The position numbers were made by a program, and so were the translations under genes. 64,000 nt of DNA from Rhina ancylostomus (Eukaryota). The notes below the pieces were generated by a model that was not told the DNA's origin, ran no database searches, and saw only the letters and a list, made by a program, of their open reading frames with translations. Below, piece after piece: positions 165 through 64,000 of the stretch (within the stretch, counting starts at the first letter, position 1; each line of letters opens with the position of its first letter). The stretch lies in contig JARFYF010000001.1 in the NCBI GenBank assembly GCA_030265395.1, positions 20,631,662 to 20,695,661 on the forward strand, read 5' to 3'.

Positions 165-1790
165 TAGGAACATAAGTACATAAGAAACAGGATCTGGAAG
201 AGCCCATTCAGACCCTCATACATGTTCTGCCACTCAGTAAGTTCATGATTGATCCAACTAGACTTCAACACCACTTTCTCACTCTTTTCCCTTTCCCCTT
301 GACTCCGTTATTGTTTAAATGTCTGTTAATCTCTGCCTTGACTGTATTCATTGACTCTGCCTCCCCAGCTGTCTAAAGTACAGAATGCCAAAAATTCACA
401 GTCCTCCGAGTGAAAAAAAAACTCTCATCTCCGGTTTGTTCTGAAAATGTGGTACCTAATTCTAGGTGAACTTTCCTGTCAATACACATTAGAATCTGTT
501 TCAATAAGATCACCTCTCATTCTTCTACGCTCTAATGACTGTTCCAGCCTTTCTTTGTATGTTAGCCTCTCCATCCCATGAATCAATCCAATGAACCTTC
601 TCTGAAATGCCTCCAACACAAGCATGTCCCTCCTTAAATATGGAAAATAATACTGTATGATATCTTCCTAGTATGGTTTCACTAGCATCCAGTAAAGTTG
701 TATCAAAACTTCCCTATTTTAAACTCTGTGCTGCTTGCCTTCCTGATTGCTTGTTGTACATGCATGCTAACATTTGTGTTTCATGTACGAAGACATCCTG
801 ATCTTTTAAGACTGCAACATTATGTAATCTCACTCCATTTAAATGATAGTTTTTTTTCATTCTTCCTTTCTCAGTAGATAACCTCACATTCTCCCACATT
901 ACGCTCCATCTATCAACTTTTCGCTCAATTGTTTAATCTTGCCATATCGTCACAACTTGGTAATGTCCTTATCTTTGTATCATCAGCCAATCTGGCCATA
1001 GTACACTCAGTTCCTGCATCCAAGTCATTAGTATAGATAATGACTAGCTGAGGACCCAACACTGATCACTGTGGAAACCAGAACCAGTCTAATTACTGAT
1101 TGCCAATCTGAAATGATCCATTTATCCCAGCTCTGTTTTCTGTTAGTTAGATGTTCCCCTATCCATGTGAAAATATTACCCTCAGTCCTTTATCTTGTGC
1201 AGTAACCTTTTCTGCAACATATTTTCCAATGTCTTCTGGAAATCCAAATACACTACATTTTCTACTTCCCCTCTATCCACCCTGTGTGTTACATCCTCAA
1301 AGAATTCTAGAAAAATCTGTCAAACACAATTTCCCTTTCATAAAGCTATGCAGACTCTGTTTGATTGCATACAATTTTCTAAATATCCAACTATTACCTC
1401 CTTAGTAATGGATTTAAGTATTTTCCCAGAGAAAAATATTAAGATAATTGGCCCATAGTTTCCTGCTTTATATCTCCCTCCTTTCTTGGATATTGCCATT
1501 ATACTGTATTTGTGGACTTCCAGTCCTCTGGGATCTCTCTGGAATCCAGAGAATTTTGGTAGATTGCAACCAAAGCATCCACCATCCCTGTAGTAACTTC
1601 CTATAAGACCTTAGGACATAAAACATCAGGTCCTTGGAACTTGTTGGCATTTAGCCCCATTAGTTTAAGTAAAACTACTTTTCTAATGATTATTTTATGT
1701 TTCTCCCTCCCTAGAGTCCTATGAATATCTACTATTCTTATTGGAATGTATTATATCTTCCAACTGAAGATTAATCCAAAAAGTACTTAG
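165..1790 (-). mobile_element. Old, degraded CR1-type LINE (RT to 3' end)
   Basis: Reverse-complement CR1-like 3' tail near 165-215, plus RT-region remnants such as ctgaggacccaacactgatcactgtggaacc (the GVPQGSVLGP region) at ~1048-1080. Boundaries approximate. Confidence 0.7.
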
Positions 1791-1884: not shown

Positions 1885-2235
1885 CAGCATTTATTGCCCA
1901 TCTCCAATTCCCTCAGGAAGATGGTCATGAGCCACTTTTGTGAACCACTGCAACCCTTCTGGCATAGGTACATTTACAGAGCTGTTTGGCGGCAATGAAA
2001 GGCCATTGATATATTTCCAAATCAGGATGGTGTGCAACTTGGTGGGGAACCAGAAGGTAGTGGCATTCCCTTAAGGCTCTTTGTTTATGGAAGAGGTTGC
2101 GGTTTTGGAGATGTTGTTGGAGAACCCCAAGCAACTAAGTGTAGCGTATTTTTTAAACCACTCCCAGTGCTGTCATTCTGCCCTGGTGGCAGATGGAGTG
2201 ACTATTTAGTGTGGTGGATGGGATGCCATGGAGAG
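1885..2235 (-). mobile_element. 3' fragment of a second CR1-group LINE family
   Basis: cagcatttattgcccatctccaattccctcaggaagatggtcatgagccac is the reverse complement of the 3' end seen on + at ~31370-31420, 37860-37950 and 44100-44175. Confidence 0.65.
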
Positions 2236-55134: not shown

Positions 55135-56590
55135 AGATTTACTTTATTCCTAATACCACCAGTACATGTCTTTCACTACATTCGTTGCATCATCAATTGG
55201 TATTAGTATTAGACACAGAGACTTAGCATTGACTGCACCGAGCTTCAGTGCATCCCTCAGCATGTACTCCTGCATCCTGGAATGTGCCAGTCTGCAGCAT
55301 TCCCTTACAGACATCTCACTGTGCTGGCAGACCAACAAGTTTCAGGCAGACCAAAGGGCTTCTTTCACTAAGTTGATGACCTTCCAGCAGCACTTGATGT
55401 CTGTCTTGGTGTGTGTCCCTAGGAACAGCCCGTAGATCAGAGAGTCCTCTGTTACTCAGCTGCTGGAGATGAACCAGGACACAAACTCTTGCATCCATCT
55501 CCACACCTTTTTTGCGAATCCACAGTCTGCAAAGAGATGGGTGATCATCTCTTCCACACCGCAGCCATTCCAAGGTTAGCATGTATTGGGGATGATGTGT
55601 TGTCTGTACAGGAAGAATCTGATTGTCAGGGCCCCTTTCACCACCAGCCAAGCAAGGTCTTGATGTTTGTTGGTGAGATTTGGTGATGAGGTGTTTTTCC
55701 AGATAGTTTGGACAGTCTGCTCAGGGAACCACCCCACCATATCCATAGTGTCCCTGTCCCACAATGTCTGCAGGACATTCTGCACTGACCACTGCCTGAT
55801 GGATGTGGTCAAAGGTGTTTACTTGGAAGTACTCTTCCACAGGGGACAGTTAGTGTGGCGACATTCAGATGACTGGAATGTTGCACAGTAATGGGGCCAG
55901 GCCTGTCTTCCACAGCACCAGGGATAGGTAAAACCTTAGCACGTAGTGACACTTGGTGCCCACGTACCTGGGGTCCACACACCGACTGATACAGCCACAC
56001 ACAAAGCCGGTCATCAGGATGGGGGCAACTTTGGGTACACTTTTGCCCCCATTCTCTGGGGACTTGTGCAACAAGACCCATCAGAGTCACTCTATCTTGG
56101 TCCCACAGATAAACTGGAAGACATCCTGGATGATTACCGTGGCAGAGGAGTGGGGAACAGGCCACACCTGAGCCAAGTACAGTAGCCCTGAGAGAGTATC
56201 GCACCTGATAACCAAGTTCTTCCCAGTTATTGAAACAGTGCACTGTTTCCACAGACCCAGTTTCTGTTTTATCTTCCCAATCTGCTCTAGCCAGTTCTTG
56301 GTACACACCTCAGCCCCTCCAAACCAGATCCTCAGCACCTTCAGGTAATCGGACTTGACGGTGAAGGGACCATTGGACTGGTCAGGGCAATCACCAAACA
56401 GCATGGCCTCACTCTTTCTGCATTTGACTATGGCCCCTGATGCCAACTCAAACTGGTCACAGATGTTGACCAATCTGTGAACTGACCATGGATCCAAGCA
56501 GGAGACAGCGACATTGTCCATGTTCAGGGAGGTTTTGACTTGGGTACCTCTACTCCCTGGCAACGTCACCCCTCTTATGCTCTTGTCCTT
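55135..56590 (-). mobile_element. Tx1/L1-clade LINE, 5'-truncated ORF2 pseudogene
   Basis: Motifs SLNMDNV (decayed YxDD), FELASGA, YLKVLRIWFG, SITGKNLVIR, AWLVVKGALTIR and a C-terminal H-x4-C zinc-knuckle remnant; AATAAA at the 3' end near 55145. Confidence 0.88.
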
Positions 56591-57571
56591 CCACCACCTC
56601 TATAAGGAGAAGATTGGGACTGAGGTTAAAGTTTAAGAATTTCAGAGCAGAACCTTAGGCAACATACAAGAGGGCCAGCACTTTTAAAGTGGAGATTAGA
56701 TGGCTTTTATTTGTCCTGTTTAGCAATCTATAGCACCTCATTAACATATTTAAATCAGTTTTCCGTTCTGCTGCTGAGAGGTTTAAAGTAGCCTCAGTTG
56801 GTCAAATAGCCAGGTCTTGAGAAACTTGACTGTAAAATGCAGATGGAAGAATTTTCCTGCAGAATTTTGGTGCCTTATTGAACTCTCTAAGTGAGCCAGG
56901 CCAAACAAACCTGACAATCATAGCTACTCACTGCATAAGTATCCAATCCATCATCCTAAAACTTCCCACCTTTATCACCTTCTCTCCTGCTTGCCATTCT
57001 CCAGTCATTCCTATCCCTGCCCCCATCATCCCCCAAGTTTTGCCTCTTTTGCAATTGCCATGGTTCAAGTACTACACCGTTCCTCATTCCATAAATTACC
57101 ATTGCAATTCCGGTACAGTTCTTTGATCTCAGTTTTTCTTCCTCCCAATTATTGATTTCTCCACCATTCAACTAACTCTTTCACCCTTTCAATTGTTGTG
57201 CTCCTATTTCACCCATTCCTTCAGACAACCTACCATTTCACACTCATTCTTGGGAATCTCAGTACCTGGAGACTACCCTCAAGCCTTACCTTCCCTGTTC
57301 TGCAGCCAGACAGCATTTGGCTGGATCCCGGAAACAAAATGGAATAAAAAATTAAAATGAGGAGCTGAAGGATCTACCTGTCCCTCTACCTGTCTCCTTC
57401 CAACAGCCTCCATTTATTGTACACCCTGCTCCCTCTCCACTTCCTCTAGTTGTCAGTGACATCATTTATTACTTGACCATCCCACCTGCCAGTCTCTTAC
57501 AGATGTTTGTTTTCATTTTACTTTTAAAAAAGTTGTTTCTCTATGTGTACCGTCTGAAAGCTCTGAACTTA

Positions 57572-58700
57572 TGTCAAGACTTTAATTTCTATCTGGCATA
57601 AGCATCTATGAGTACATCCACTATAGGAAGATTATACTGTATCAACCTACCCTTCAAGGACTAGTTTACTTCATTACTTTAATCTCTACGGAAAGGTCCA
57701 GCTGTCAATAATCACTATTTCGAGCATTGGGTCCCTCTTCCCAACCAAGGAGAAGATACTTCCAGTTAACAAAGCAGTGTCACAATGTTGATCGAGAGCA
57801 AACTCACAGAGAACCCAAATGCAGCACACCAATACAAGACTGGAGTCAGGATNNNNNNNNNNNNNNNNNNNNNNNNNNNNNNNNNNNNNNNNNNNNNNNN
57901 NNNNNNNNNNNNNNNNNNNNNNNNNNNNNNNNNNNNNNNNNNNNNNNNNNNNTTCTCTATTCCTTTGTGAAGATCCAGTTCATGTTGGGATTCCTCTTCT
58001 GATCTCTGAGGCAAGATTCCTTCCAGTTGTTGCCTGTGTTTGTCCTGAGGAAGTACCCTGACTCCAGTCTTGTATCGATATGCTGCATTTGGGTTCGCTG
58101 TGGGTTTGCTCTCGATCAACATTGTGACAAGCAGTTTAAACACAGTTTATTTTAAGTGAGACACATTTAATTCTAATAAGTAATTCTTAAGAACATCTTG
58201 TAACTTACAAAGGATTTCCAAACACAAGTACAATTCTTACAAGCTAAAAAGTCACACCAACAAGTTGCAGATGAACAAGTGGTCCATCACAAAAACCAAA
58301 GGCTGAGGAATGAATTTTTGGTCTTCTTTCTGTAACCCTTTCTCTCTGTCATTTTTTCCAACCCTGACTGCTTTCCAACATTTGTACTGATTTTTCACTG
58401 AGTTGACATTTTCAACCACATTTTCAGGCCAGGCGACTGGAGCATTTAATTAAGTAAATGTGGATCCCATTGTTCTCTTGTTTAAGTTAAGAGGCTGAGC
58501 GGGGAATATTGGTTAGAAGTTTAACTTAGTAAACAGCAAACATCTTGAGCCTTGGGCAATTTCTGCTGTTTTTGCTAATGGGATCTTAGCTTAATGAGCA
58601 ACCACGTCCTGACCTTCGGACAGGTAATGCTGCTGGGCTAAAAAGATGAGGTTATCAATAATTCCTTTTTGTGGCCTGGAAAGTGAATGTGCATCACACA
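57572..58700 (-). mobile_element. Candidate 3' LTR of the endogenous foamy-like virus
   Basis: Minus strand begins TGTG directly after purine-rich AGCAGTAGGGG; CCAAT at 58512-58508; AATAAA at 58151-58146; ends AAATTAAAGTCTTGACA at 57572. No second LTR in the window to confirm. Confidence 0.4.
57778..58129. mobile_element. TIR element (TGT...ACA ends, 73-bp TIRs, 5-bp TSD)
   Basis: 57778-57850 is an imperfect reverse complement of 58057-58129. AGCAG direct repeat at 57773-57777 and 58130-58134. Internal N gap. Confidence 0.85.
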
Positions 58701-59312
58701 CCCCTACTGCTGACTGAAGTTTTCTAGTCCAGCTAGTCCTTCCAGAAACTATTCAAGGTCAGACTCCTGCCAAGATTCCTCCTGGGAGCAGACTATCATT
58801 CCACCAACTGTTCCACTGGTACCAGAGGAGATTTCCTTAATTGGATGCTCAATGACTCATTGAATATTTCCCAATATAAGGGTTTCTGTGTGATCTCTTT
58901 GTAAGAGAATTCTCAGCTTCATATATTTCTGAGCTTTCAGAGGATGTTTTACCACCAATCATTTTATAAACATGTGACAACAATGCACCAATATTCATGT
59001 TATAAATCCATTTTTAGTTCATCTTTAAAATTTTTCTTCTTCATAATCAGCTCTCGCCATTATCTTGATGCAAGTTTGGATCACTGTCTTTGATATATTT
59101 GTTAATCTCATCAGCTAGTAGTGTCTTTTATCAAGCTGAAGATGGTTCATTCCTTTCCACAAGAGTGTCTGGGTTCCTTTGGATGCTGTGCATGATGTTT
59201 ATTTAGATTTTCTGAAAATGAGTCTTATAGGCATACTACTGATTTTTGTTTTCTTAGATTGTATATTGCTATCTTCTTTTGCCTATGGATTAGTAATCTT
59301 ATGTTTTATGTT

Positions 59313-59640
59313 GAAGGTACAGGAGCCTGAGGGCACATACCACCAGGCTGAAGGTCAGCTTCGACTCCAGTCTTGACTATTATACGATGAGATGGTTTCT
59401 GACCTCACAATCTACCTTGTTCTGACCTTGGACCTTATTCTCTACCTGCACTGCACTTCCTCTGTAGCTGTGACACTTTACTTTGTACTGTTGTTGTTTT
59501 TACCTGTACTACCTCAATGCACTCTGTACTAATTCAATGTAACTGCACTGTGTAATGAATTGACCTGTACGATTGGTATGTAAGACAAGTTTTTCACTGT
59601 ACCTCAGTACAAGTGACAATAATAAACCAATACCAATATA
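59313..59640 (+). mobile_element. Rex/Babar-like LINE 3' end inserted in the provirus
   Basis: gaaggtacaggagcctgagggcacataccaccagg start; tail aataaaccaataccaata. Confidence 0.8.
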
Positions 59641-59644
59641 GAAA

Positions 59645-62258
59645 TTAGACTCATCAGTTACATGATTCACAGTATAAGTGTAAGGTAAAAACATTTATAG
59701 AGGCAGGTTACATTTACATGTGTACTAAGGAAGGGTACAGTACTCCTGTTAAGGATTCTGTCTGTACTTTCACTTCTGGGTGACCAGAATAAGGTGTTGG
59801 AATTTATGGGTTGGTTATGTCCCTCCCATGGGAATGAATACCCAAAGGTGTACTGTGGCTTGGCATTCTGATGACAACCATACAATATGCAGTTTCTTCC
59901 CATTTGGATGATTCTGTACTCTGGATGTAAATATGCAGGTCTCTCTCTTTTACCTTGTTAGAATTGGGCCTGATGGAGAAAAAGTGATATATCTTCCCAA
60001 CTTTCGTGTTTTTCCAGAAAACTTTAACTGAACCAGGGCTGTTCCTTCAGGCCATGGGATTTTGTCAACCAGATATATTGATTGTTCTTGTAACATTAAA
60101 TATAACACAAATGGCAGTGTCAGTAGGCCTAGGGTCCTACCTGTTGCATTGTAGGAGTACCATATATGCAATAAATGCCTATACCCAAATGGTAATTAAG
60201 CAACAAAATGCATCCAGATAATTCTACTTTATGACAATATATGACAGGCAGGACAATAGTGTAGAGGTTAGCGTAATGCTGTTATGGCGCCAGTGACTCA
60301 GGTTCAATTCCAGCTGCTGCCTGTAAGGAGTTTGTATGTTCTTCCTGTGACTACGTGGGTTTCCTCTGGGTGCTCCAGTTTCCTCCCACATTCCAAAGAC
60401 GTACGGGTTAGGAGCTGTGGGCATACTATGTTGGCGCCGGAAGCATAGCAACACTTGCGGGCTGCCCCTAGAACATTCTATGATGCATTTCACCGTGTAT
60501 TTCGATGTACATGTGACTAATAAAGAAATCTTATCTCATAATACTTTGTAGGCCCCGAAAGCCCCAGAGGTTACATCACCATTTCTGAAGAAGTCACAAC
60601 AAAATACGTAAAAAATGTTATCAGGAGTATAGGATTCCCCAGGGGTTGCCATTTTTTCCCCTCCTGGTAAGTCTTTTCCCATAGTAAAACATAGCACACA
60701 AGATATAGTGTTATAATGGTTTGAACATAAAAGTAAATGGTTAAACCATGATAGCATAATGCCATATTAGCAGTTAGCAACATATTAACATAGTATATAA
60801 ATTCTTAAAAAGCATATTATGAAGTTAACCATGTTAGAAAATAAAAATGTAATATCCANNNNNNNNNNNNNNNNNNNNNNNNNNNNNNNNNNNNNNNNNN
60901 NNNNNNNNNNNNNNNNNNNNNNNNNNNNNNNNNNNNNNNNNNNNNNNNNNNNNNNNNNNNNNNNNNNTGAGGCAAGAAATGTGGATAGCCATATGCAACA
61001 TTAGTGATCAGGACCAGAAAACTGAGAGGAGCAATGATAATGTGGTGAGGGTGGTCCCTGTTCCTCACTCTTCCAGGGTTGAGGCTGAATCTGAGGAACA
61101 GGTAAAGTGCAAGGATGAGGCAGTGTATATCGAAGCAGACAGATGAGAGATAATCCACGGTGCCACAGGTGGGCCATAGACTCAGTGGAGTCGGAGTGGA
61201 CCTGGTATACAAAAAGCGGAAGTCAGGAAAGCCTCAGTTCTTCCAGGCTTCAGCGTTCAACAGAAGGAGCACTTCTGCTGCAGTGCATCCTTCCGCCTTA
61301 TCTTCCTGTGCAAAAGCTGGATCAAGGGCTTCGCCGAACCATTTAGAATATAAACCAGTAGTATAGAAAATTGTCATGTTACTGTTAACATTGGATAAGG
61401 AAGTGGAATAGAGGCCATAGTTGGAGAAATGAAAATGTCTAAAGCCTTTGTAATAAGTATGTTTGCCATAAAGGGGAAGTGCAATACGATATCAAACTAA
61501 CATGAAAGAATCGTCATTAAAAATGACAATGGTCTAGTCCAATAGTGTTAATGTCATGTCACCATGATTAGGACCATTCAACAACACAGCAAGGATCTAT
61601 GTCAAGGAATTCTTCTATTAGTTTACCTTCAACATCTGAGCTGGAATCTTTCAGTTTTGTCAAGATATCATTAATTACTCTCACAAGTGATTCTTTCCTT
61701 TCTATGTTCATTTCTTCTGCAATGCAGTCAGAGTGAATATTTAAGTGGACGGGAACAACACTTTGCCAGAGGCAAGGATTATGAGTTCCAGCATATTGGT
61801 CCACATATGACCAAGGGGTATGAACTATTTGGTGACATTTAATTGGAATTATCATTGCTCACAGATCTCGAGGATCTAATATTTTATGAGTCATTGTTTA
61901 AGGGTATCTGAGCCAGATGAGACAATCTCTGTGGTAAATACTTCTTCATCTGCTAAAGAGCAAATCTAAGTAAAGCAGCACTGAATAATATTGAAATATG
62001 AGACATAAATATTATAGCAAGAGCAACATTTCTTTCTGGAATTTGAGTGTTTCTTACTCCAAAATCAACAATCCTTTTTAGTTGTACTACTTCTGGGTAA
62101 TGAATCTATGAGGTCTGCTTCAAGTGAAAAGGAATTTTTATGTTTTGTTTTAGATTGAAGCATGTGCCCTATCTGTTCAATACATCTCACCTATCGTCCA
62201 TTGAGATGTAGGGATTCTACGGTGCATGTATAGCTTTAATATCAGGATTCCAACACAT
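59645..62258 (-). pseudogene. env: Foamy-virus-like env (leader peptide and SU), disrupted
   Basis: ATG at 62258, just after the pol stop. Hydrophobic NVALAIIFMSHISILFSAALLRF at ~62030-61962. RSSR/SV furin site at 61877-61866 (PFV RIAR/SL). HLNIHSDCIAEEMNI...LVRVINDIL (PFV LMINSENIANNANL). TIFYTTGLYSKWF at ~61375-61337 (PFV VLFCSDQLYSKWY). Weaker match RNCILY...YTFGY near 59900-59840. Confidence 0.75.
60245..60536 (+). mobile_element. V-SINE inserted in env
   Basis: tRNA-like head with B box ggttcaattcc, V core and tail aataaagaaatcttatct; same family as 4357-4660. Confidence 0.9.
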
Positions 62259-62269
62259 TCTGGGGGTAT

Positions 62270-64000
62270 TCACTCTGCTGGGGCGGGATTAGTGTTATCA
62301 ATGGAGACAGATCTACTTACAGTTTTGTTTGCCTTCCCTGTTTCAATTACCAGTCTTATCATTGATAAACTGGATAATGAGCAAGGAGGTTTCCATTTAG
62401 GATGGAAACTGGGGTCACAATTGTTTTTATGAAATTTTTTTTCTTGAACCCATTCACCTTTTTGTGCTATCCAAACTTTCTTATCAGGTTCTTTTGTTTC
62501 TCTTGAGCTCCCATAAACTCTCTCAACTCCTTGAGTGGAGTTTTATCTGGTGTAGGCGAAGGTTGGCCTGATTTAGCAATTAAGGGTGTATTTAGATGGA
62601 CATTGTACATTAAAAAATAAGGTGTAACATTCTTATGTATTCCTATTTTTGCCAATAGCATGTTATTTACAGATAGCTGAACTTCAGGGACAAGTGTAGC
62701 CTATCTTTTACCTCGAGAGTAGACCAGTTTTGCCAGGGCCCTCTTAATCTCCTGATTCCTTCTCTGCATGGTCACACTTGATTGTGGGTGGCATGGAGTG
62801 GTGTACCCCACTTGTATTCCTGCCGATTCACACATGGCCTGAAAGCCTTCAGCAATGAAGGAAGACCCTCAGTCTGCATGTTAGCAGGCAAGATGGCCAG
62901 CATGCGGGACTATTGAGTTCTGAAGTGTGGTGATGGTAGCGGTCCCACTACAAGAAGCTGTGGAGACTAACCACGTATATCCTGTACAAAGATCAACTAC
63001 AACAAGAATATATTTATTTGGTGGTTGCCTTGGGATGCCAGAAATGGGCCTATATAATCAATTTGCCACACGTACATTGATATGTTTGGTTTTATTCATC
63101 TTTTAGGAGGTGGTTTTGTAACTGCTCCTGCATTATTGGCCAGATATTCTTTACAATTTGCAACAAATAGCTTGCAATCAGTCAACATGTAAGGTCACCA
63201 ATATAATAAGGCTAATTTTGCATTAGTGGCTTGTCCGCCACCATGATTGTGTCCAAATCCTTGGTGAGCTTCTTGAATTAATTCTTCCGGCTTATGAGCA
63301 GGAGGTATTTGCTTCTTACCTTTTTTTAGGGACATACCCAAACCTTACCTTCACCATCAGTTTCATACTTGTACTTTAAGATTGGGTTGAGTAGTAGGAG
63401 TATTCTTAGAAAATCATCTTGATTACTCTTTATTTGTTGCTTAGTTACTACCATAACCCTGACCTCCCTTACCATAGTAAGGTCCATCCTGACAGCTTGC
63501 TTGGCTTGTTCATCAGCAAATTTATTACCATAGCTGTGTAGATGGTCTGCAGTATGTCCTGGTGTGTATAACACCTGTATTAATGGATGAGTCAATAATA
63601 ATTCATAGATCTTTTTCCACGTGGACAAGTGTGGAAGTAGATTTCCTCTATGTGTTTTTCATCTGGTAGTCTACCAGATGGGGAGATCTCTTTCTACTGC
63701 ATTCCTGACATAGTTAGAGTCAGTGCAGATCAGGACTGGTTCAGTTGTATTTACNNNNNNNNNNNNNNNNNNNNNNNNNNNNNNNNNNNNNNNNNNNNNN
63801 NNNNNNNNNNNNNCTTGCAACTCCTGAGGTTCAAATTCTGTTTCAGATAAAACTTTTCTTTTATAATCCCTGCTCCTGCTTGTAACCTGGTTGATTATTT
63901 CTATGGACTTTCATTGCTGACCCATCGCAGTACCTTATTTCAGAGTAGTGTTTTAAAGGATGTTATGCCACATTAGGCCATGGAGGAGATTGTTCTGCAT
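62270..64000 (-). pseudogene. pol: Foamy-virus-like pol: RNase H and integrase, disrupted, continuing beyond the window
   Basis: RNase H motifs HPLKHYSEIRYCDGSAMK, PVLICTDSNYV, HLSTWKKIYE and PGH...GNKFADEQA. Integrase motifs AHQGFGHNHGG...CKEC, WQIDYIGP, YILVVVDLCTGYTWL, HAD*GSSF, TPCHPQSS, EIKRALAKL, VQEK, HPKWKPP and SVSIDN; stop at 62272-62270. Order and spacing follow recalled PFV Pol. Confidence 0.93.

Follow-up and report, generated by a model that had tools for sequence, protein, structure and literature searches.

How did an endogenous foamy virus come to lose the middle of its env gene between what look like a splice donor and a splice acceptor, and to occupy, in that form, eight loci of one genome? 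The question is raised by an element read on the minus strand of a 64,000-nucleotide stretch of the Rhina ancylostomus genome (hereafter the window; GCA_030265395.1, JARFYF010000001.1, 20,631,662–20,695,661). We found that the element is a degenerate endogenous foamy provirus, resident in the germ line and defective, and comparison with its relatives suggests that the eight env-deleted loci quite probably descend from one spliced genomic RNA, which would have been re-integrated in germ cells without a functional envelope. Coordinates below are window positions unless L011, the adjoining 10 kb past the window end (minus strand), is named; articles are cited by PubMed Central (PMC) number.

Results

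An env deletion bounded by candidate splice sites

The env remnant of the window copy carries stops and frameshifts, and its middle is missing:

61250..62260, minus strand: env remnant, comprising the leader peptide and the N-terminal part of the surface subunit (SU) fused to the last membrane-anchor codons; 77–80% identical to sister copy C59
61271..61272, minus strand: exon–exon-like junction GAAG/TGCTCC; in-frame loss of the env middle, from a GT donor to an AG acceptor

Measured against copy C22, the missing stretch is ~1.9 kb long; against C59, in which this stretch contains a 440-bp insertion, it is 2.3 kb. In C59 its borders read GAAG/GTAAGA on the 5′ side and TTGTTTTTATAG/TGCTCC on the 3′ side, and the window copy reads GAAG/TGCTCC. 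Among 21 matches to a junction query, eight loci, including the window copy, span the junction; seven of these carry the exact join of an AG/GTAAGA donor to a TTTTTATAG/ acceptor, and in the eighth another small deletion covers the join. The join is in frame and fuses N-terminal SU to the last seven membrane-anchor codons, leaving little of SU and hardly any of the transmembrane subunit (TM) in the carriers' env product. The intron sequence persists at nine loci, and the acceptor is present in all three unspliced copies that retain that end. (Note that copy C104c is included in the junction count and in the carrier tree described below, and stands outside the donor and deletion-breakpoint tables.)

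A first alternative to splicing is an ordinary template-switch deletion that ended by chance at splice-like sequence; the family would then be nothing more than an endogenous foamy virus, several of whose sublineages carry deletions. Indeed, the family has at least four other multi-locus deletions that are not splice-like, and the env junction itself shows a 2-nt AG microhomology compatible with template switching. We nevertheless regard this explanation as very improbable. Both ends of the env deletion fall on splice consensus, since in the 5,820 nt of C59 the donor is the sole MAG/GTRAG site and the acceptor is one of 19 acceptor-like sites, giving a uniform chance of 6e-7 for both ends; this value is post hoc, and allowing for a looser donor (eight sites) and for the ~ten deletions inspected brings it near 5e-5. 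Moreover, the donor AG/GTAA is kept in six of the seven unspliced copies examined, and microhomology is longer at most other deletions. None of the other shared deletions that we inspected has GT-AG borders, and most show microhomology, at most ~10 nt long; it measures ~9 nt both at the 750-nt accessory deletion and at the deletion of reverse transcriptase (RT) sequence in the window copy. That all shared deletions are splices was ruled out in turn: one of them, deletion C, has an acceptor-like 3′ end, no GT donor and 6–7 nt of microhomology.

The carriers appear to share a single history. In a tree built from env upstream of the junction, with the junction itself excluded, they form one star-like clade (100/98) that is sister to two unspliced copies and has no unspliced copy inside it, and their flanks are unrelated in the six carriers tested, except for one 207-nt repeat match. 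RT sequence is kept in three of the eight carriers. Changes in RT within the carrier clade are spread evenly over the three codon positions (0.111/0.128/0.116); those between subfamilies are third-position-heavy (0.163/0.160/0.317). On the stem branch, the retained env shows 9/3/13 changes by codon position versus 5/3/16 for the integrase core, a test in which changes from before and after the splice are not separable.

We consider the following course of events likely. An internal env intron would have been removed from a full-length RNA that retained the primer-binding site (PBS), the packaging region and the polypurine tract (PPT), and this RNA would have been reverse-transcribed and re-integrated inside germ cells. 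The spliced genome, still encoding Gag and Pol, may then have served as the master for a burst of insertions. The window copy in particular would have lost RT by a microhomology deletion, during copying or later, and would afterwards have undergone neutral decay and received three younger insertions. Because three carriers retain RT sequence, retrotransposition in cis is the simplest reading. Comparable cases have been described: primate foamy genomes are capable of intracellular retrotransposition (PMC3705263), deltaTas proviruses match the Bet splice sites (PMC12945018), and endogenous mouse mammary tumor virus (MMTV) with a rem-intron-deleted env is known (PMC11998498).

A second alternative accepts the splice but takes the spliced genomes to be defective passengers of Env-competent relatives, spread by reinfection or by complementation in trans. 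Intron-bearing copies coexist with the carriers at the nine loci mentioned above, and sublineages without RT multiplied too, with C50, L003 and L007 sharing a gag-pol deletion that needs help in trans. Set against this, the RT in three of the eight carriers means that the master could supply its own enzymes, and the absence of unspliced copies from the carrier clade likewise disfavors passengers. We consider the passenger explanation unlikely, though well ahead of a template switch. Several points do weigh against spliced retrotransposition in cis: the predicted splice sites are known from DNA alone, the AG microhomology noted above is present at the join, and a single origin with a star tree fits both retrotransposition in cis and help in trans from an Env-competent relative.

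Foamy identity of the element

We place the element in the foamy lineage, outside the mammalian foamy genera. In the window, two frames had the integrase of prototype foamy virus (PFV) as their best PDB match, with E values of 1e-9 and 1.5e-23, against 3.5e-6 for the best integrase from outside the foamy viruses. The best PDB matches of the RT of sister copy C94 were foamy Pol (E 2.6e-38, versus 3e-13 for Ty3 and 2.5e-9 for HIV), and the top RT matches among 1.84 billion representatives were P0002 (a Logan protein of 1687 aa; 39%) and then feline foamy virus (FFV) Pol (36%, the best named match), with a Scyliorhinus torazame protein ninth. A word-index search of longer proteins with the window integrase piece, which is too degenerate for the purpose, gave a single weak match (E 7e-6) without foamy-specific domains. 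The PFV-like Pol motifs noted in the preliminary description were read here as YCDGSA, QIDYIGP, VVVDLCTGYTWL, HPKWKP and VSIDN.

Evidence from outside Pol points the same way. The Gag_FV_central domain (PF20672) scored above cut-off in all three sister copies scanned (E 1.8e-8, 8e-8 and 1.8e-8); it was not found in the tested part of the window copy's gag, a PDB search with one Gag piece gave no match, and a Cys-His box was not seen by eye in the P/Q/R-rich C-terminal Gag frames. Foamy_virus_ENV (PF03408) matched C59 twice (E 2.6e-9 and 9.6e-6), and the C59 TM matched a foamy Env structure, PDB 8ozh (E 3.3e-8). The window env frames alone matched no foamy Env model in Pfam, and the env call in the window follows from its DNA identity to C59, itself a match to PF03408; over the shared env and post-env parts the two copies are 77–83% identical.

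In a 32-row RT tree the family grouped with mammalian foamy viruses, newt proteins, the catshark protein and P0002 (99/94), and in an 18-row integrase tree, from which one long Gypsy row and one out-of-frame query row were left out, the window integrase was sister to P0002 (97/96) inside the foamy group (93/96). A phylogeny of RNase H and integrase had been proposed as a check on the foamy call; in our trees neither RT nor integrase grouped with Gypsy or with frog and bird elements, and both fell in the foamy clade. Together with the Gag and Env domains and the 4-bp target-site duplications (TSDs) described below, these groupings bear out the foamy assignment made in the preliminary description.

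Might the element instead be a foamy-like element of the ray-finned-fish type, a Loki element or another class III element, rather than a true foamy virus? Gag and pol lie in frame, as they do in class I and some class III endogenous retroviruses (ERVs; PMC8278194). The protease DTG motif is present, but Spuma_A9PTase (PF03539) found no match in the three frameshifted RT-region copies scanned, and the protease of P0002 matches RVP, not A9. In addition, the 211 columns of RT taken alone did not reject placement with the teleost clade (p-AU 0.055, approximately unbiased test), and our trees were built on references other than named lokiretroviruses, snakehead retrovirus and the published foamy sequences of cartilaginous fish; both facts count against the foamy reading. 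That reading is nonetheless favored by Gag and Env matches that are foamy-specific and by the placement of RT and integrase with mammalian foamy viruses, and a grouping with the frog/bird clade was rejected (p-AU 0.0125). We therefore see only a slim chance that the element lies outside the true foamy viruses.

Two further sequences came to light. L073 (G000:C1461:1-3993, minus strand) holds a different retrovirus-like element, whose Pol frame is open for 1222 codons (protease, RT, connection, RNase H and integrase); it clusters with frog and bird proteins, apart from foamy viruses, and is young and possibly Loki or class III. P0010, a hypothetical protein of Scyliorhinus torazame, has a foamy-clade RT/connection piece fused to a PR/SET domain, and is probably an ERV within a PRDM locus that was mis-annotated as an exon.

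A cartilaginous-fish host, also proposed at the outset, agrees with an esterase exon that scored 935 bits to acetylcholinesterase PDB 1gqr/1ea5 (which we take to be electric ray), versus 763 to 4qww (presumably krait) and 663 to mammalian entries; the scores support an elasmobranch, on the evidence of this one gene.

Provirus layout

The provirus has the order LTR–PBS–gag–pro–pol–env–accessory–PPT–LTR (LTR, long terminal repeat). The window itself contains RNase H and integrase, the first (5′) third of env, the accessory region and the 3′ LTR, and ~3 kb more of the element lies beyond the window end. In addition to the two env features given above, we recognized the following, which include a short interspersed element (SINE) and a miniature inverted-repeat transposable element (MITE)-like insertion:

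63491..64000, minus strand: RNase H remnant (PF00075, E 8e-8; tblastn match to FFV Pol; N run at 63755–63813)
62270..63450, minus strand: integrase remnant in three frames, with H2C2, core and C-terminal SH3 (Pfam; PFV integrase the top PDB match)
58713..61250, minus strand: post-env accessory region, ~1.9 kb without insertions, with a broken hydrophobic open reading frame (ORF; at least 320 codons in one frame of sister copy C94) and, close to the LTR, another stretch with few stops
58699..58712, minus strand: PPT, degenerate here; ...AAGAGGGGG/TG in family copies, from the survey of LTR starts
57545..58698, minus strand: 3′ LTR, starting TGTGATG, ~800 bp without its insertion; blocks 84.5% and 81.5% identical to the 5′ LTR
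L011 1–390, minus strand: connection domain, in the adjoining DNA
L011 ~400: deletion of the remaining protease and the RT polymerase domain, ~1.24 kb, with ~9-nt microhomology
L011 ~400–500, minus strand: protease stub with DTG
L011 506–508, minus strand: gag/pro junction codon
L011 511–2170, minus strand: gag remnant, with a SINE/N-gap at ~1093–1441
L011 ~2171–2188, minus strand: PBS
L011 2190–2963, minus strand: 5′ LTR
57778..58129, unstranded: younger MITE-like inverted-repeat element with 73-nt arms in the 3′ LTR; neither the 5′ LTR nor the LTRs of sister copies have it
59306..59637, unstranded: younger repeat in the accessory region; sister copies are continuous across the site
60241..60538, unstranded: younger SINE-like insertion (repeat family D1 and inverted pairs I1, I9 and I11), absent from sister copies

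The preliminary description had reported colinear RNase H, integrase and env remnants with stops on the minus strand. For RNase H, H2C2 (E 1.5e-7) and the integrase core (E 6e-8) this is confirmed by Pfam, the three being colinear, in three different frames and with in-frame stops; SH3_11 was found in sister copy C59 (E 2e-5). The env part holds for ~62260–61250 and no further. The adjoining DNA, which the same description had marked for inspection, contains the 5′ LTR, PBS, gag and protease stub, and RT is deleted in the window copy. The deleted ~1.24 kb is kept in sister copies (RVT_1, E 2.5e-13 in C94); that the whole family is without RT was accordingly ruled out. The claim that at least three younger transposable elements sit inside the provirus also stands, the last three rows of the list having no counterpart in sister copies. 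Elements of the ~350-bp inverted-repeat type at 57778–58129 are also present in or near several other family copies and represent an abundant younger MITE-like repeat. Outside the 3′ LTR, and so outside the provirus, the broken C-terminal region of a non-LTR retrotransposon RT was recognized by eye at 55200–56600 on the minus strand.

Family, LTRs and age

The family comprises ~40 related loci: a 1.4-kb query gave 50 matches at ~40 places, 69–88% identical, from the best 40 of 43 candidates, and an LTR query gave at least 42 matches from the best 40 of 666 first-look candidates. Family LTRs run from TGTGATG to ATCATCACA over ~805–835 bp. Of 19 LTR matches taken, 18 were resolvable, and nine of these are flanked by a perfect 4-bp TSD, with two more agreeing at three of the four bases and none perfect at 5 or 6 bp. 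TSDs of 4 bp are also gammaretroviral and hence not diagnostic alone. The 3′ LTR of the window copy lacks ~14 nt at the end of the family's terminal motif, so that no TSD is readable there. Directly after the LTR, eight copies have a PBS-like site resembling TGG[CT][GA]CCCAAC, which is presumably of the tRNA-Lys type.

The LTR pair of the window copy differs by a Kimura two-parameter distance (K2P) of 0.128 over 731 nt, in line with the old age first ascribed to the element; among the other pairs, seven lie at 0.11–0.20 and one has too little overlap. This divergence translates into ~130 Myr at a rate of 0.5e-9 (PMC10699275) or ~290 Myr at 2.2e-10 (PMC4422223), both rates being assumptions, and CpG decay (observed/expected ratio, 0.23) inflates the distance.

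In an index of sequencing runs searched in DNA mode, one run contained 0.78 of the words of the stretch and five runs, from three other organisms, contained 0.05–0.09, small shares that give no evidence of orthology; no RNA run was among those listed. Some other members of the family have histories of their own. A second amplified sublineage (L017/L018, L003, L007 and L055/L056; 100/100) is without env, and at least three of its copies are also without most of gag-pol at a common breakpoint, a loss implying that they moved with help in trans. At L069 6849–8249, a family solo LTR with a 4-bp TSD lies inside the pol of another family copy, and closely spaced LTR matches at G000:C84:15890144-15891979 and C94:33646758-33647998 are possibly tandem or interrupted LTRs.

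Gag and Pol share a frame

The C-terminal frame of Gag continues into the protease DTG, stop-free over 191 codons in copy C74b and open also in C52b and in the window copy. At the gag/pro junction codon, the 12 readable copies (a thirteenth did not align) have TAG in five cases, CAG in four, and TGG, TTG and AAC in one each. No in-frame Met was found between this codon and DTG in the in-frame copies that we translated, so that in place of the separately framed pol with its own start codon that serves as a foamy criterion we find one shared frame. Mammalian foamy viruses make Gag and a separate Pol only (PMC3705263; PMC8278194). Because gag and pro share a frame with no Met before DTG, the virus likely produced Pol by read-through from Gag or as an open Gag-Pol fusion, not by initiation at a separate start codon. 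The mixed junction codon tells against choosing between these, as it fits both read-through and open fusion, and a splice into pol may be an alternative route to Pol.

A hydrophobic ORF after env

In C94, one frame of the post-env region is interrupted by few stops over ~320 codons and encodes several stretches of hydrophobic residues. Between subfamilies this hydrophobic ORF shows a third-position excess (0.143/0.165/0.288), which is weaker or absent in two other accessory pieces, and a shared-stop scan together with the codon-position pattern gives a coding signature over ~1.9 kb. No homolog of the ORF was found in Pfam (three copies), in PDB or in one length-limited protein word search, nor was a Tas/Bet match to it. 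A TATA-like site lies within 900 nt of the acceptor in one of three copies; signs of an internal promoter thus vary between copies.

Discussion

Our findings suggest how a virus with Env-dependent budding could become an envelope-less genomic resident, the intron-less germ-line subfamily offering a route. We put forward only tentatively, and as somewhat more doubtful than not, the combined claim that an early-branching foamy lineage with Gag-Pol read-through or fusion and a spliced, env-less master are both true and both unpublished. If it is true, the separate pol mRNA specific to foamy viruses would have arisen after the split between shark and tetrapod viruses. Separate Pol expression is regarded as a foamy hallmark, and foamy Gag and Env combined with a one-frame gag-pol bear on when it arose; PFV tolerates an orthoretrovirus-like Gag-Pol in a laboratory study (PMC3196705). 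The env junction would moreover be the first fossil splice junction of an endogenous foamy virus, the in-frame env splice would yield a small protein with the leader peptide, in the manner of MMTV Rem, and the foamy lineage would include an accessory protein that spans the membrane several times and is unrelated to known families. That the fused leader peptide had a Rem-like role is speculative and seems improbable to us.

The preliminary description had suggested an undescribed elasmobranch foamy lineage, and as stated this finds no support, since foamy elements of sharks and rays are already published; the family probably belongs to the lineage already reported from these hosts. What sets the family apart is a subfamily that was amplified without env, probably after splicing, together with the common frame of gag and pol and an accessory ORF for which we found no homolog. 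Endogenous foamy viruses of cartilaginous fish were reportedly described by Wang, Chen and Cui (2023, J Virol); those elements would share with the window family its host class and a foamy position outside the mammalian viruses, and the window family may be among them. Neither a spliced endogenous foamy provirus nor gag-pol read-through in an endogenous foamy virus was described in the literature searched, and the cartilaginous-fish paper and one other key paper, which lie with their supplements outside that search, may contain these loci.

Comparison with known systems

The family resembles the prototype, feline, bovine (BFV) and equine (EFV) foamy viruses in its Gag central domain, in that a Cys-His box was not seen, in Env TM homology, and in the series RT–connection–RNase H–integrase with SH3_11. 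It also shares with mammalian foamy viruses the 4-bp TSD, the presumed Lys-like PBS and a coding region between env and the 3′ LTR, but differs from them in having ~35% Pol identity, a single frame for gag and pro-pol with no start codon before the protease motif, and a hydrophobic post-env ORF in place of a recognizable Tas/Bet.

Among foamy-related ERVs of cartilaginous fish, ERV-Spuma.0-Sca of the small-spotted catshark comprises 293 elements that cluster with ray-finned-fish foamy-like ERVs, with the Gag domain undetected (PMC10699275), and for CmiFLERV of a chimaera only pol was found (PMC5512871). The window family is multi-copy like the catshark element and, unlike both, has foamy-specific Gag and Env domains.

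The closest relative that we found, P0002, is intact: a single open frame leads from a Gag-like N-terminal part into Pol, uninterrupted by a stop before the protease. It is 25–50% identical to the window family over aligned pieces. Its RYNLRPR motif is, we assume, like the foamy chromatin-binding site.

Splicing of a foamy pregenome has a precedent, in that Saib (1993) is said to have traced the deltaTas foamy provirus to it. Like deltaTas proviruses, the window copy is a provirus missing what appears to be exactly one viral intron; in deltaTas this is the 301-nt Bet intron and the infection is somatic, whereas here it is ~1.9 kb in env, germ-line fixed and present at at least eight loci (PMC12945018). 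The rem-intron-deleted endogenous MMTV and spliced HERV-H are similar in showing in-frame loss of an env-internal intron in an LTR-flanked provirus, and spliced retroviral insertions are called rare (PMC11998498). The MMTV case, however, concerns a betaretrovirus and is young and recurrent (PMC11998498), whereas the window family is foamy and ancient, and its spliced form probably had one origin followed by a burst.

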